From the NCBI GenBank assembly GCA_040403495.1, contig JBBAKM010000007.1, positions 486 through 64,485 on the forward strand: a stretch of 64,000 bases of DNA. Direction: 5' to 3'. Within the stretch, counting starts at the first letter, position 1. Every line of letters begins with the position of its first letter. A program made the position numbers and the translations under genes. Below, piece by piece: positions 2,418-43,801 of the stretch. Source of the stretch: Bacteroidia bacterium (GTDB lineage: Bacteria; Bacteroidota; Bacteroidia; NS11-12g; UBA955). The notes under the pieces are model-generated. The model did not search any database. It was not told where the DNA came from and saw nothing but the letters and a program-made list of their open reading frames with translations.

Positions 2418-3349
2418 TAATTTTTATTAATATTATTAGCTAGCAAGAACATACAAGCCATTCTGATGGCAACGCCATTCTCTACTTGGTCTAAAATGAT
2501 ACTTAAGTCACTATCAGCAACCTCACTTGTTATCTCCACACCTCTATTGATAGGTCCGGGATGCATAATAGTAATTGGTTTATCAAGCTTTTTAATTAAG
2601 TCCATTGTTAATCCATATTGTAAACTGTATTCCCTTAAAGATGGGAAATATTTATCATCTTGTCTTTCCATTTGAATGCGCAACATATTGGCAACATCGC
2701 ACCATTGAAGGGCTTTTTCCAATTGATGTTCCACTTTTACACCCAACTGTTCTATGTGTTTGGGAATTAATGTTGTTGGTCCGCAAACCATCACTTGGGC
2801 TCCTAATTTATTAAGACACAATATATTTGACAAAGCTACTCTACTGTGTAAAATATCACCCACTATTAGCACTTTCTTTCCTGCCACATCGCCATAAGTT
2901 TCGCGAATAGAGTATGCATCCAAAAGGGCTTGAGTAGGATGTTCATGCGTTCCGTCGCCTGCGTTTAATATAGCAGCATCAATGTGTTTAGACAAAAACA
3001 CACAAGCACCAGGACTAGGGTGACGCATTACCACCATATCCACTTTCATGCTTAATATATTTTTAACCGTATCTATCAATGTTTCACCTTTGGTAACCGA
3101 AGAGGAAGAGGATGAAAAGTTGATAATATCGGCACTTAGTCTTTTTTGGGCAAGTTCGAATGAAATTCTTGTTCTAGTAGAGTTTTCGAAAAACAAGTTA
3201 GCAACAGTAATATCACGAAGAGAAGGCACTTTTTTTATCGGACGGTTAATAATGGCTTTAAAGTTATCTGCCGTTTCAAAAATCAGTTGAATATCCGCTT
3301 CTGAAAGGTCTTTAATGCCCAATAAATGATTTACTGATAATTTACTCAT
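2417..3349 (-). CDS. pyrB: Aspartate carbamoyltransferase catalytic subunit
   Basis: 310 aa. Carbamoyl-phosphate-binding motif 'STRTR', aspartate-binding 'HPTQ' and the 'HPGP' C-terminal motif are present. The gene overlaps the pyrR stop by 8 nt. Confidence 0.9.
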   Translation of the reverse strand: MSKLSVNHLLGIKDLSEADIQLIFETADNFKAIINRPIKKVPSLRDITVANLFFENSTRTRISFELAQKRLSADIINFSSSSSSVTKGETLIDTVKNILSMKVDMVVMRHPSPGACVFLSKHIDAAILNAGDGTHEHPTQALLDAYSIRETYGDVAGKKVLIVGDILHSRVALSNILCLNKLGAQVMVCGPTTLIPKHIEQLGVKVEHQLEKALQWCDVANMLRIQMERQDDKYFPSLREYSLQYGLTMDLIKKLDKPITIMHPGPINRGVEITSEVADSDLSIILDQVENGVAIRMACMFLLANNINKN

Positions 3350-3878
3350 GCGTTTTTAACCAAACTTTATAATTATTTTCTTGCCAATCTACTTTAACCT
3401 TTTGATTTTGACCTCTTGTATCAATGGATTTACCAACATAATCGGCACTAATTGGATTTTCTCTGTGGTATTTTCTGTCTATCAACACACACAATTCTAC
3501 TTTATCGGGTCTGCCAAAATCCACCAAAGCATCCATGGCACTTCTGATAGAACGTCCCGTGTACAAAACATCATCTATTAAGATAATTTTCAACCCTTCG
3601 GTACTAAAAGGAATGTGAATAGGACTGGCAGACAACTGCTTTTCGGAAGACCTAAAATCATCTCGGTAAAAAGTAATATCCAATTCACCATAGTTGATTT
3701 TTTTTCCTATAATTTCTTCAATCTTATTTTTGATAAACCTAGCTGGCAAAACACCTCTGGGTTGCAACCCAATGATTGCGGTATTAGAAAAATCATCGTA
3801 GTTCTCTATCAACTCATAAGCCAACCTGTTTAGGGTTACAATAAGTTTGTGGTGATCAAATAATAATTTTTCTTCCAT
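3342..3878 (-). CDS. pyrR: Bifunctional pyrimidine operon regulator / uracil phosphoribosyltransferase PyrR
   Basis: 178 aa. It has the PRTase fold motif 'ILIDDVLYTGRSIRSA' and lies directly upstream of pyrB, as in classic pyr operons. Confidence 0.85.
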   Translation of the reverse strand: MEEKLLFDHHKLIVTLNRLAYELIENYDDFSNTAIIGLQPRGVLPARFIKNKIEEIIGKKINYGELDITFYRDDFRSSEKQLSASPIHIPFSTEGLKIILIDDVLYTGRSIRSAMDALVDFGRPDKVELCVLIDRKYHRENPISADYVGKSIDTRGQNQKVKVDWQENNYKVWLKTHE

Positions 3879-3881
3879 TGT

Positions 3882-4292
3882 TTATTTCGTTTCGGAAAGT
3901 TCTAAAATGATATCAAATTCATACTGAGTTAGCTTCATAACACTCAACCGTCCTTGTTTAACCAATCCAATGTTTGCCAAACGACTGTCATTTTTTATTT
4001 GTTCTAAAGTAACTGTTTTTTTGAGTGTTTGAAATGGTGCAACATCCACAACAACCCAATTGGTATCATCGGTTGTAGGGTCTTGGTAATGTTCTTTAAC
4101 AATTTTTACAATTCCCACAATCTCTTTACCTTCATTGCTGTGATAAAAGAAACACAAATCCCCAACTTTCATTTCTCTGAGGTTATTTCGTGCTTGGTAA
4201 TTGCGAACACCGTCCCAAAAAGTCTTCTTGTCAGCCAACATTTGTTGCCAAGAGTACTTAAATGGCTCCGATTTTATCAACCAATGATTCAT
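3882..4292 (-). CDS. EVE (PUA-like) domain protein
   Basis: 136 aa. The N-terminus 'MNHWLIKSEPFKYSW' and the overall length and pattern match the EVE domain family. It is the first gene of the minus-strand EVE-pyrR-pyrB-asparaginase-membrane protein operon. Confidence 0.7.
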   Translation of the reverse strand: MNHWLIKSEPFKYSWQQMLADKKTFWDGVRNYQARNNLREMKVGDLCFFYHSNEGKEIVGIVKIVKEHYQDPTTDDTNWVVVDVAPFQTLKKTVTLEQIKNDSRLANIGLVKQGRLSVMKLTQYEFDIILELSETK

Positions 4293-4458
4293 TCATGCAA
4301 ATGAAAAGAAAAAAAATTGACTTTTCAACAGAAACAAAGAAAGATTATTCACTTAATATCTTGATAACTTAAGAGACAATCTTTCCTAATTAATTTTCAA
4401 CATGAATAAAATCTAATAATAAAATTTGTATTTTTGCTGTCACAAATAAGAATACGTT

Positions 4459-5568
4459 TTGGAAAATTTCATTGTATCAGCTAGAAAATATCGCCCTTCC
4501 GTTTTTGACGAGGTGGTGGGTCAAAGGCATATTACAGATACATTACTCAATGAAATCAACTCCAATCAACTGGCTCAATCATTTTTATTTACTGGTCCAA
4601 GAGGTGTAGGTAAAACAACTTGTGCCCGTATTTTAGCCAAGATTGTAAATCAAACTGAAAATGACAATCCTGACAATGATTACAGTTTTAATATCTTTGA
4701 ATTAGATGCTGCAAGCAACAACTCTGTAGAAGACATTCGTGGTCTTATAGAACAAATTAGAATACCGCCACAAACAGGTAAATACAAGGTTTATATTATT
4801 GACGAGGTTCACATGTTGTCCTCTCAAGCTTTTAATGCTTTTCTAAAAACCCTTGAAGAACCCCCTAAATATGCGATTTTCATTTTAGCGACGACTGAAA
4901 GACATAAAGTTCTTCCCACAATATTATCACGCTGCCAAATCTTCAATTTCAGAAGAATTCAGGTTAACGATATGGTAGAGCATCTTAAAAAAATTGCTTT
5001 AAAAGAAAATATTGAAGTTGAAGAGGAAGCCCTCCATGTTATTGCCGAAAAAGCAGATGGTGGTCTGCGTGACTGTTTATCAATATTCGACCAAATGGTC
5101 AGTTTTTCTAAAGGAAAAATCACCTACGAAAAAGCCATTGAAAACTTAAATATCCTTGACAGAAGTGTTTACTTCAAAATGACTGAATCAATTATAAGTC
5201 AAGATATTGCCCAAACACTTAATTCATTTGACAACATCATCCAACTTGGTTTTGATGGTCAATTATTCCTGAACGGATTAAGCGACCACTTTAGAAATCT
5301 ATTGGTTTGCAAAAACCCAAATACACACAAACTTTTGAATGTAAGCGACAACCACAAAGAACGCTACAAAATTCAAAGTGAGGAGTGCCAATTGTCTTTC
5401 TTGCTCAACGCACTTAATATCAACAACCAATTTGATATTGAATACAAAATGAGTAAAAACCAACGTTTACACATTGAACTTGCCCTATTAAAACTCTGTC
5501 ACATCAAAAGTTTAATCCAATCAAATCTAACATTGGAAGAATTAAAAAAAAAAGTGATGAGTATATAG
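4459..5568 (+). CDS. dnaX: DNA polymerase III subunit gamma/tau, N-terminal clamp-loader domains I-III (gamma-like product, 369 aa). It terminates just after an A10 tract.
   Basis: The ORF carries the Walker A motif 'GPRGVGKTTCARILAK', the 'DEVHML' box and an SRC-type sensor motif. It ends with ...LKKKVMSI* at the TAG at 5566-5568, immediately after the A-run at 5544-5553. Confidence 0.9.
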   Translation: MENFIVSARKYRPSVFDEVVGQRHITDTLLNEINSNQLAQSFLFTGPRGVGKTTCARILAKIVNQTENDNPDNDYSFNIFELDAASNNSVEDIRGLIEQIRIPPQTGKYKVYIIDEVHMLSSQAFNAFLKTLEEPPKYAIFILATTERHKVLPTILSRCQIFNFRRIQVNDMVEHLKKIALKENIEVEEEALHVIAEKADGGLRDCLSIFDQMVSFSKGKITYEKAIENLNILDRSVYFKMTESIISQDIAQTLNSFDNIIQLGFDGQLFLNGLSDHFRNLLVCKNPNTHKLLNVSDNHKERYKIQSEECQLSFLLNALNINNQFDIEYKMSKNQRLHIELALLKLCHIKSLIQSNLTLEELKKKVMSI

Positions 5569-6164
5569 CTTCTGTTAAAGAGCTAAAGAACAAACGTTTG
5601 ATTGATTCCAACAAACCGAAACATGGTGTGTTTGAGTCTGAATTAGCAACCAAAGAATACAAACTCCCCAAGATACCTTCCAAAGGCGCCATTACAGTTG
5701 AGGACAATGCCAAACAAATTTCAATACTTGAATTAGCCAAAGACGAAGAATCTGTCATTAAAATATCAGAGGACTTAATTAAACAAAGCTTGCCTCCAAT
5801 GGAACAAGTGCCTGTCCTGAATGAAACAACATTAATTGCAGCGAATCAATCATTTGGAAAAAGCAAACCTATTGCACTAGCTTCTCTCTTTAAAATTCTA
5901 AAATATGAATTAGTAGGAACTAACATCAATGTTCATTTAACCAAGCAACAAATTGAAAAAATTGGGGACCATAAAATTGATTGGCAAATTTATTTAAGGC
6001 AGTATTTCCAACTAAATGAAATTGTTTTAAATTTCAATGAAGACAATAGCGTTGAAGCCCCTAAAATTTCCTACACCTCTGCTGAACAGTTTAAAGAAAT
6101 GTACGATGAAAACAAGTCTATTCAAGAACTTGTAAAAACATTCAACTTAAAAATCAAGTATTAG
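5517..6164 (+). CDS. dnaX: Probable tau-specific C-terminal part of DnaX in the -1 frame relative to 4459..5568. It is reachable by a -1 ribosomal frameshift or transcriptional slippage in the A10 tract, or it is a homopolymer sequencing error.
   Basis: The -1 frame is open from 5517, well upstream of the TTG at 5598 used by the ORF track. It overlaps the A10 tract and continues 216 codons to 6164. There is no independent RBS or promoter context. The encoded sequence is hydrophilic and looks like a tau C-terminal domain. Confidence 0.55.
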   Translation, partial: PIKSNIGRIKKKSDEYIASVKELKNKRLIDSNKPKHGVFESELATKEYKLPKIPSKGAITVEDNAKQISILELAKDEESVIKISEDLIKQSLPPMEQVPVLNETTLIAANQSFGKSKPIALASLFKILKYELVGTNINVHLTKQQIEKIGDHKIDWQIYLRQYFQLNEIVLNFNEDNSVEAPKISYTSAEQFKEMYDENKSIQELVKTFNLKIKY

Positions 6165-7665
6165 TTTGGCTCGACTTATTGTGCTGGTGGTGGTACATTT
6201 TCAGAGCTGTAATAATAGCTAAATAACCCCAAAATGGTGCTGCAATTTTATCAAAATCAGTAAAGTTATTCAAAAAGGCGTGGACGTAATAGGTAAACAA
6301 ACCAAGCATTACAGCAGTACCCAAACTCTTTACCCATGGCAATACCGAAGGATGATATATGAGCCCCATTGCCAAATAAATAGAACTTAAAAAAACTGCA
6401 ACCCAACTCAAAAAACCAATCAGTCCCATTTCGGAAAGGGCATTAAAATATTCACTATGTGTGTTACCCAAGTCACCACTGTTGGTGCTAATAAGTGTTA
6501 AGTTTTCAGGTCTTTGAAATGGGGCATATTGGAACGTGTATGTTCCGGGACCGAAACCAAAAACAGGCCTTTCTTTGAACATTAAAACGGCACATTGCCA
6601 CCTGTTTACTCTTTCCAAATTGGAAGGATCGGTTGTAATATTTGAAACAGATTGTGCATGAGATTCTATGTCATCGGCACTCCCCTGCTTATTCTTTTCG
6701 AGACTGTATAAAAGTTGGTCTTGCCTAATCCAAGCAATTGACAAAATCAAAAGCAAAGCATACATCATGTGTTTAAAAGAAACTTTGAACTGCAATAGCA
6801 CGTAAAAAAACAATGCTGCCAATAAACTTATCCATGAAGCACGGGTGTAAGAAAAAATAATTCCCACAACCAAAACAATAAAGATACTAAAAAAAACGGT
6901 GCGATAAATCCAATTAAAATTGAATAACTGACCACGCAAAGTATACATTAAAGCTACGGGAACCAAAAATGAAATATAGGCCGAATACATGGTATGTTCT
7001 TGGAAAAAAGGCTTCATAATATCATACCCCCAACCTCTCGAAAAATCTTCTCTAGCATGTTTAACCAAGGTATAAAAAACCACTATAACCGTTCCATATA
7101 GCAAATAAGAAAGAAACTTTCTCACTACACTTGGATTCTTAAATAACTGAAGTAAGAAAAAGTAAAAAACGACCATAAACCAAGTACGGGCCAAAAAGTA
7201 CTTGAGAGAAACCATCGGCATTGAGCTTGCAAAAACGGTTACAAACATCCATACCCAATTGATAACTATAAATAAAATTAACGGATTATTGAATAATGAA
7301 ACCTTTATCTCTCCATTAATAAACAACTGGATGACATAAACCAAAAACAACAACCAAATCATTGGTTCTGTTGGTAAAGACAAGCCAAAACCACCTCCAA
7401 CATCGTCAACAAACAATGAAAAGGGAATTAAAAAACAAAGGATTAAAGTATAAAAAACTGGTCTGTAAATACAAATATAAACTGCAACTAGCGCAACAGG
7501 TAATAAGAGCATTTCATACACCCCAAAAAACAAAGAAATGCCAGTGATAGCAATAAAAAGCAATCCGATTAAATAGATTACTTGGTTTGATTTTTCTTTG
7601 AAATGGAGGTTTAAATAATTCAAATTAAACAGACTTGGTCGTTTGAATTTTTTCGTAAATGGCAA
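6154..7665 (-). CDS. O-antigen ligase/polymerase-like (Wzy_C domain) multi-TM membrane protein
   Basis: 503 aa with more than 10 hydrophobic helices and a large periplasmic loop, typical of the WaaL/Wzy family. It sits adjacent to Wzz-like and Wzx-like genes. Confidence 0.55.
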   Translation of the reverse strand: MPFTKKFKRPSLFNLNYLNLHFKEKSNQVIYLIGLLFIAITGISLFFGVYEMLLLPVALVAVYICIYRPVFYTLILCFLIPFSLFVDDVGGGFGLSLPTEPMIWLLFLVYVIQLFINGEIKVSLFNNPLILFIVINWVWMFVTVFASSMPMVSLKYFLARTWFMVVFYFFLLQLFKNPSVVRKFLSYLLYGTVIVVFYTLVKHAREDFSRGWGYDIMKPFFQEHTMYSAYISFLVPVALMYTLRGQLFNFNWIYRTVFFSIFIVLVVGIIFSYTRASWISLLAALFFYVLLQFKVSFKHMMYALLLILSIAWIRQDQLLYSLEKNKQGSADDIESHAQSVSNITTDPSNLERVNRWQCAVLMFKERPVFGFGPGTYTFQYAPFQRPENLTLISTNSGDLGNTHSEYFNALSEMGLIGFLSWVAVFLSSIYLAMGLIYHPSVLPWVKSLGTAVMLGLFTYYVHAFLNNFTDFDKIAAPFWGYLAIITALKMYHHQHNKSSQTNT

Positions 7666-43713: not shown

Positions 43714-43801
43714 TGGCGGAGAGTAAGAGATTCGAACTCTTGATACCTTGCGATATACACGCTTTCCAAGCGTGCTCCTTAAACCACTCGGACAACTCTC
43801 C
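43714..43801 (-). tRNA. tRNA-Ser (anticodon GGA), type II with a long variable arm; the CCA end is encoded
   Basis: The minus strand reads GGAGAGTTGTCCGAGTGGTTTAAGGAGCACGCTTGGAAAGCGTGTATATCGCAAGGTATCAAGAGTTCGAATCTCTTACTCTCCGCCA. It has a 7-bp acceptor stem, a D-arm with GG, an anticodon stem CACGC/GCGTG with loop TTGGAAA, a long extra arm and a T-arm GTTCGAATC. Confidence 0.9.

Follow-up and report, generated by a model that had tools for sequence, protein, structure and literature searches.

A 64,000-nucleotide (nt) stretch of DNA from a Bacteroidia bacterium (contig JBBAKM010000007.1, positions 486 to 64,485; the whole stretch is here referred to as the window) contains a dnaX gene, encoding the gamma/tau subunit of DNA polymerase III, that is divided between two reading frames at a run of ten A residues (A10). 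This raises the question of how tau, the long form of DnaX, could be made from a gene whose first frame encodes the short form, gamma. The C-terminal region of tau tethers the polymerase core and the helicase to the clamp loader, as established for Escherichia coli. An original prediction for this locus had proposed that a −1 slip at the run would join the two halves, and it left open whether the slip would be a ribosomal frameshift or transcriptional slippage. Our analysis makes it very probable that the dnaX A10 tract is a genuine, selected recoding site, with gamma in frame 0 and tau requiring recoding. The best explanation overall, which we judge likely, is a maintained recoding site at which slippage of RNA polymerase at T10 would give both DnaX forms.

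The dnaX gene is split between two frames at A10

The frame-0 open reading frame (ORF) extends from position 4459 to 5568 on the forward strand, is listed with a TTG start and encodes 369 amino acids (aa). It carries the DnaX motifs Walker A (GPRGVGKT), Walker B (IIDEVH) and SRC, and would be the gamma-like product of an unedited A10 mRNA. The tract itself, the proposed slippage or shift site, lies at 5544 to 5553 on the forward strand (T10 on the template strand) at codon 362, and frame 0 is read across it as TT-A AAA AAA AAA G. The protein ends in EELKKKVMSI (codons TTA AAA AAA AAA GTG ATG AGT ATA TAG), with the stop codon TAG at 5566 to 5568 (+), 12 nt or four codons past A10; in the relative L001, this stop is TAA. 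The sequence thus confirms the predicted division of dnaX between two frames at A10, together with the length, the motifs and the stop codon of frame 0.

Two of the three frames close within four codons of the tract. One is frame 0, and the other is the +1 frame, which meets tandem TGA codons at 5555-5557 and 5558-5560 (+), a pair that is unchanged in every relative compared. The third, the −1 frame, extends for 203 codons as the tau-specific segment (5553 to 6164, +), which reads SDEYIASVK...NLKIKY and ends at the stop codon TAG at 6162-6164; around A10, its translation is K K K S D E Y I A S V K. The −1 frame had been described as open from 5517 to 6164. Its end is correct, and its opening lies at 5478, just downstream of a TGA at 5475-5477. 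One added A joins the tau segment to frame-0 codon 365 and yields a fusion of 568 aa, in agreement with the tau-sized protein of about 570 aa that had been expected from a −1 slip. When other run lengths were simulated, A11 gave the 568-aa and A8 a 567-aa product with the frames fused, and A9 and A12 gave products of 365 and 366 aa, both ending at the TGA at 5555-5557. Accordingly, the expectation that either A9 or A11 would restore one continuous frame was right for A11 and wrong for A9, and the frame is also restored by A8.

An A10 tract in DNA of 34% G+C content is by itself unsurprising. Long A/T runs are strongly depleted in the window, with a single A10/T10 match where about 11 were expected from dinucleotide-preserving shuffles, and the single survivor, the only A/T run of at least 10 nt (5544-5553), lies at the gamma/tau junction. 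Among the 27 A/T runs of at least 8 nt in the window, the dnaX A10 is the only one at which a change of ±1 merges two frames (from 372 to 571 codons). The remaining 26 break no gene, and the window contains no C or G run of at least 8 nt.

The two halves match one tau protein

Both halves were compared with protein family models. The N-terminal part matched the Pfam families DNA_pol3_delta2, DNAX_ATPase_lid and DNA_pol3_gamma3, scored above the cut-off of TIGR02397 (dnaX_nterm) and aligned with positions 1-365 of the 614 positions of the NCBIfam model PRK14971. The C-terminal part matched positions 494-613 of the same model (E value of 3.9 × 10−6), which bears out the tau-like character that the original prediction had ascribed to it. 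Furthermore, a profile of tau C termini from related genomes with a single ORF aligned with residues 124-202 of the 203 residues of the C part (24 bits), reaching the extreme end. Pfam holds no model that covers the tau C-terminal region, and the search of solved structures with the tau C-terminus profile gave no meaningful match, the best one being an unrelated proteasome subunit (E value of 9 × 10−4).

Public annotation treats the halves as separate. Gene callers start the second one at a TTG at 5598 and report a 188-aa downstream ORF (5598 to 6164, +). The exact 369-aa sequence is present in public collections under the name 'DNA polymerase III subunit gamma/tau', and the tau-specific part (5598-6164; homologues P0002, P0003 and P0021-P0024) is named 'hypothetical protein', including in JGI/IMG. 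The exact 568-aa fusion does not occur among the public protein sequences, which means that it has not been annotated by any pipeline in this lineage.

A10 and both coding segments are conserved within the clade

Contigs of the same clade were obtained from Logan, ENA and JGI, together with the GTDB genomes L012 and L013 and the matches from a pattern scan of metagenomes. Those from the first three sources and the two GTDB genomes encode the 369-aa ORF followed by an ORF of 187-188 aa in the same gene neighborhood, and exactly A10 with the same split was found in 16 of 16 clade contigs, which come from different samples, pipelines and archives. The motif GAATT-A10-GTGATGAGTATATA was present in all of them, and the metagenome scan, which permitted A8 to A12, yielded two more contigs, both with A10. 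At the protein level, clustering at 90% places the 369-aa protein in a set of 50, whose complete members are 369 aa long. A search with the C part returned five homologous clusters (74-99% identity), all of 187-188 aa, so the gene is called split wherever it is seen. One clade record, L012 (CAMBXL010000005.1), bears the title 'Chitinophaga pinensis isolate GE-03apr19-118'. At 98% identity, the DnaX of this record matches that of the 34% G+C window, the closest relatives are freshwater 'Bacteroidia bacterium' metagenome-assembled genomes (MAGs), and the species label is probably wrong.

The sequences compared are considerably diverged, as third codon positions of the flanks differ by up to 46% (166 of 361 for the N part versus L001). 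We scored codon changes in the −1 frame against L003, L009 and L013 and found 57 synonymous against 20-28 nonsynonymous changes, whereas the same DNA scored in the two other frames gave 3-7 synonymous against 74-83 nonsynonymous changes. In the 15 codons between A10 and the TTG at 5598, solely synonymous third-position changes were seen in these three relatives. This pattern indicates that purifying selection acts on the −1-frame segment, beginning with the first codon past A10, upstream of the TTG.

Both polarities of the split occur around a persistent A tract

Our survey drew on GTDB species representatives and comprised 80 related dnaX loci, 77 of which could be scored end to end. Split genes were found at 17 loci, counted without the window-clade genomes L012 and L013. 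In these 17, a short frame-0 ORF (356-380 aa) ends just past A10 at the boundary of domains III and IV. Tau is reached by one additional A in 16 of the 17 and by the loss of one A in the remaining one (L040), and of 19 split loci, 18 have tau in the −1 frame. At 16 other loci, frame 0 encodes tau; the run at this boundary is A9, A10 or A11, and both other frames meet a stop within about 11 codons. No A-run was present at 45 loci, largely labelled Bacteroidales, and one locus (L089) has A8 only, at codon 444. The original prediction had pointed to orthologues as the place to look for a conserved A tract with two frames; in addition to the 16 clade contigs, six further lineage groups with about 60-65% DnaX identity have A10 and the split, with gamma in frame 0 and tau reached via one additional A. 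Together with the A10 of the clade and the selection on the −1 frame, these distant lineages give comparative support to the proposal that standard decoding would produce the short form and a shift the long one.

The A-run starts at codon position 1, 2 or 3, depending on the lineage, and in split genes it is always ten long. The two polarities are intermingled in a neighbor-joining tree built from the first 350 residues. For example, L086 has gamma in frame and its sisters L036, L065 and L071 have tau in frame, the difference being one extra base (C) right after A10 in L086, and L015 (tau in frame, A11, a chromosome-level MAG) falls within a group formed by L017-L021, which have A10 and gamma in frame. 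In these two sets of relatives, the differences lie at about dnaX codons 371-380. The interleaving of polarities that are one base apart implies that the polarity has flipped repeatedly while the tract was kept. The sole locus that needs the opposite direction is L040 (CAYQNU010000005.1), where A10 lies at codon 353, gamma is in frame 0, and the tau C terminus (homology at an E value of 1 × 10−20) is in the +1 frame, to be reached with A9 or A12.

Two further observations concern the sequence at the tract. On the reverse strand of L092 (Ga0114969_10198360), reverse-complement positions 51-79 contain an identical 29-nt core, GAATT-A10-GTGATGAGTATATAG; L092 is a far more distant relative, with a tau C part that is 31% identical and with flanks that are unrelated at the nucleotide level. 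Other lineages share the pattern (N0-2)GATGA...TAG past the run, which places TGA and TAG in the non-tau frames and Asp-Asp/Glu in the tau frame.

The locus belongs to a known class of two-ORF dnaX genes

Any novelty implied for the reversed gamma/tau logic in the original prediction is not borne out, since it was published in 2013. Antonov et al. (NAR 41:6514; PMC3711429) grouped the two-ORF dnaX genes of Bacteroidetes, Chlorobi and Coraliomargarita in the GeneTack cluster COF_239165634, which comprises 17 genes from 12 genera, nine of them with A10, and assigned them to transcriptional realignment. The members with A10 include Flavobacterium johnsoniae, F. psychrophilum, Cytophaga hutchinsonii, Capnocytophaga ochracea and several Chlorobium species. 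This organization was restated by Sharma et al. in 2014 (PMC4066793) and Atkins et al. in 2016 (PMC5009743). As in that class, the first ORF of the window gene covers DnaX domains I-III and stops four codons past the tract (here at 369 aa), and A10 marks the junction, in an A10-G context shared with the Flavobacterium, Cytophaga and Capnocytophaga members. The shift at the DNA level is −1, the second ORF encodes the tau C-terminal region, recoding would be needed for the longer tau, and the position and direction of the transition are conserved (in the 16 clade contigs and six further lineage groups). Unlike the listed members, the window represents a different, uncultured freshwater lineage of Bacteroidia and has the flanks GAATT-A10-GTGATGAGTATATAG. 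At the level of sequence, the locus shows every defining feature of a class known since 2013, which it confirms and extends. The searchable literature, which does not cover subscription-only papers, yielded no experiment that tests the two-ORF dnaX class.

The closest mechanistic precedent is dnaX of Thermus thermophilus, in which transcriptional slippage occurs on A9 (Larsen et al. 2000, as summarized in PMC5009743). Bacterial RNA polymerase is well documented to slip on A/T runs of at least nine, and slippage on nine A/T is efficient in vivo (PMC5009743). The window gene resembles it in having an A tract of at least nine at the gamma/tau boundary, two products from one gene, and stops close behind the tract in the non-tau frames (here TGA at 5555-5557 and TAG at 5566-5568). 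In Thermus, slippage gives mRNAs of mixed length, as we propose here. The polarity is opposite: in Thermus, tau is the unedited single ORF and slippage leads to gamma, whereas here the unedited message would encode gamma and slippage would lead to tau. The Thermus-like polarity is found in sister lineages, including L020, L022-L026, L033, L036, L045, L065, L071 and L075.

The −1 frameshift of E. coli dnaX involves the same gene, the same boundary of domains III and IV, an A-rich slippery sequence and two products with a shared N terminus. In contrast to the situation proposed here, in which the shift would yield the longer product, the E. coli shift is translational and yields gamma. Reversals of polarity between related species are also known from the tssM genes, where a premature stop lies just past poly(A), the functional long form needs transcripts with extra A residues, and variants of both lengths are made. 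For Citrobacter rodentium tssM1 (A11), transcripts with 10-15 A were measured, and the long form made up about 20% of the product; Yersinia pseudotuberculosis tssM3 (A9) also undergoes transcriptional frameshifting, and the mechanism was proven by electrospray ionization mass spectrometry of cDNA and by AAG substitutions (PMC4256274). Unlike dnaX, tssM1 and tssM3 are unrelated, nonessential secretion genes. In insect endosymbionts, genes interrupted at long A tracts are rescued by polymerase infidelity, and selection keeps the tracts in place (Tamas et al. 2008 and Wernegreen et al. 2010, cited in PMC3971599 and PMC5009743). Those genomes are degenerate and contain many such genes, whereas one gene is affected in the window and its short product corresponds to the known, functional gamma.

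Transcriptional slippage is favored over ribosomal frameshifting

In the mechanism that we propose, RNA polymerase would slip on the T10 template and produce mRNAs of mixed A-run length. The unedited A10 mRNA would be translated into the 369-aa gamma-like clamp-loader subunit (domains I-III followed by VMSI), and A9 and A12 mRNAs into gamma variants of 365 and 366 aa that stop at the TGA past the run. A11 mRNAs, as well as A8 and A14 mRNAs, would bring the downstream 203 codons into frame and give the 568-aa tau (567 aa with A8). One gene would therefore supply both DnaX forms, with tau depending on the slip. That the slip takes place at transcription rather than, or besides, translation is inferred, as is the gamma:tau ratio.

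Of the other explanations, the one that survives best, though we hold it to be rather unlikely, is that tau is produced mainly by programmed −1 ribosomal frameshifting on A_AAA_AAA, in which case the mRNA would stay A10 and some ribosomes would slip back one base on the Lys codons. Frame 0 offers sites for such a shift, as TT-A AAA AAA AAA G holds two overlapping X_XXY_YYZ heptamers, the product would be identical to that of an A11 mRNA, and the tau frame is −1 in 18 of the 19 split loci. In the words of Atkins et al. (PMC5009743), the reversed dnaX cases are 'derived from ribosomal frameshifting'; these authors also point to a candidate in Chlorobium whose stimulators resemble those of E. coli. 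However, A_AAA_AAA is far less shift-prone than A_AAA_AAG in E. coli (PMC5009743). Moreover, seven A residues suffice for the ribosomal shift, yet the split lineages keep exactly ten in all three codon phases, and L040 requires the other direction.

The stimulators that accompany A_AAA_AAG in E. coli dnaX are an upstream Shine-Dalgarno sequence and a downstream stem-loop, and none of these elements is conserved here. Only A_AAA_AAA heptamers, and no in-frame A_AAA_AAG, occur in frame 0 at A10. We found no conserved Shine-Dalgarno-like motif upstream of A10 and no AGGAGG-like core kept among the relatives; the window has ATTGGAAGAATT, compared with ATTGGATGAATT and CTTAGATGAATT in relatives (GGAAG versus GGATG or TAGATG). 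The search of Rfam returned no frameshift-element match at the gathering score in the window, and no match to any family at an E value of ≤10 in the region 5450-5700. The E. coli dnaX frameshift element is the Rfam family RF00382.

A hairpin at 5566 to 5585 (+; TAGCTT/GAGCTA, five Watson-Crick pairs and one G·U pair) had been described as overlapping the frame-0 stop codon. This weak hairpin is present at this place, starting 12 nt past A10, but it folds in the window and L012 alone and is not kept in the other relatives. In an alignment fold of seven distinct sequences, it lay outside the consensus structure and had no compensatory pairs, and the downstream 67 nt gave a fold z score of −1.24, with 21 of 200 shuffles folding equally well. 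As it is unconserved, shows no covariation and lies in a region that folds no better than shuffles, we rejected this hairpin as a frameshift stimulator.

Several of these results bear on the choice between the two mechanisms that the original prediction had left open, and the evidence leans to slippage. Slippage is favored because the length of ten is invariant across all codon phases, because both polarities exist, because the opposite direction needed by L040 can be supplied by slippage and not by −1 frameshifting, and because E. coli-type stimulators are absent. We therefore regard transcriptional slippage as probably the main route to tau.

Some points weigh against this choice. The conservation of A10 within the clade is by itself weakly informative, since AAA codons of the clade are in general kept at 81-100%. 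The A_AAA_AAA heptamers of frame 0 make −1 ribosomal frameshifting physically possible, with the same 568-aa product. The −1 frame is needed in six lineage groups and the +1 frame in one (L040), a bias that would fit ribosomal −1 shifting as well as insertion-biased slippage, and L040, a single MAG, could carry a run-length error. Finally, if slippage gives about 20-30% of transcripts with one additional A, tau would be in the minority, a surprising outcome given that it is tau that holds the polymerase.

A stem upstream of A10 may accompany the tract

Many lineages have a stem-loop that ends 0-3 nt before the A-run (L086, L036, L065, L071, L045, L040, L023, L015 and L017). In L086 (about 2370-2450), it reads CCGCATC-CTTA-GATGCGG and is followed by A10, and in L040 it has a 10-bp stem. 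The upstream stem falls within the lowest 10% of same-gene 30-nt windows in 9 of 18 lineage groups (binomial P = 2 × 10−5, a value that overstates the independence of the groups). Between L086 and L036, the stem shows one compensatory change, C-G to T-A, at synonymous sites. In the clade of the window, an AU-rich upstream stem adjoins A10 in L001, L003, L009, L012 and L013 (−3.7 to −6.1 kcal/mol); it is weak in the clade and shifted by 6 nt in the window, and no compensatory changes were seen there.

A terminator-like stem-loop of the nascent RNA stimulates slippage in a Roseiflexus IS630 element. By analogy, we tentatively suggest that A10 may be paired with an upstream stem of the nascent RNA in a conserved 'hairpin plus homopolymer' module, in which the stem would tune slippage and set the gamma:tau ratio, and that lineages might flip the polarity by single-base changes with the module kept. 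In the literature searched, we found no description of such a module in Bacteroidia dnaX.

Separate genes and sequence errors do not account for the split

It is very improbable that the locus consists of two real genes, that is, one for the 369-aa protein and one for a separately initiated or reinitiated protein of about 188-200 aa that acts in trans, with no recoding. Gene callers do give two ORFs, and the TTG at 5598 is available as a start. However, this TTG is replaced by CTA in L001 and by TTA in L013, which agrees with the original view that the downstream ORF has no start context of its own, and the −1 frame contains no ATG, GTG or TTG from A10 to 5598. The constraint on the −1 frame begins at A10, 15 codons before the TTG, and in sister lineages the same residues lie within one continuous tau ORF. 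A scan for promoter and terminator consensus sequences between the two ORFs revealed nothing that points to a separate transcription unit. The 188-aa downstream ORF is thus best regarded as an annotation artefact and not as an independent gene.

An error of sequencing or assembly in the homopolymer, a recent pseudogene or phase variation at the DNA level (a population mix of A10 and A11) is hardly credible: homopolymers are indeed error-prone, the window is one assembly, and L015 with its A11 sits inside an A10 clade, but A10 was found in 16 of 16 contigs and exclusively in a scan permitting A8 to A12, the 50-member cluster is uniform at 369 aa where complete, the window has no second run that disrupts a gene, and purifying selection acts on both halves despite third-position divergence of up to 46%, which cannot be reconciled with an essential gene having become a pseudogene. 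The homopolymer length error that the original prediction had named as its alternative can thus be set aside.

Genomic context

The gene order around dnaX (window positions 3342-7665) is common to L001-L009. Upstream, on the opposite strand, lie a phosphoribosyltransferase-family gene (178 aa) and an EVE-domain gene (136 aa). Downstream, also on the opposite strand, are genes for a Wzy_C (O-antigen ligase-like) membrane protein, a Wzz-like protein and MurJ, and the 3′ end of the Wzy_C ORF overlaps the dnaX tau stop by a few bases. The sole RNA gene detected by ARAGORN and Rfam in the window is a tRNA-Ser(GGA) gene at 43714-43801 (−).

Implications for DnaX production in Bacteroidia

Since the tau part is called as a separate 'hypothetical protein', genomes of this clade are misannotated, and quality checks of MAGs may take their dnaX to be truncated or misassembled. 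The comparative set, with both polarities around A10 among close relatives, provides natural material for studying the control of the gamma:tau ratio and the reasons for the retention of A10. As both the polymerase core and the helicase are joined to the clamp loader through tau, replication in an organism whose genome encodes gamma alone in frame 0 would depend on a decoding 'error'.

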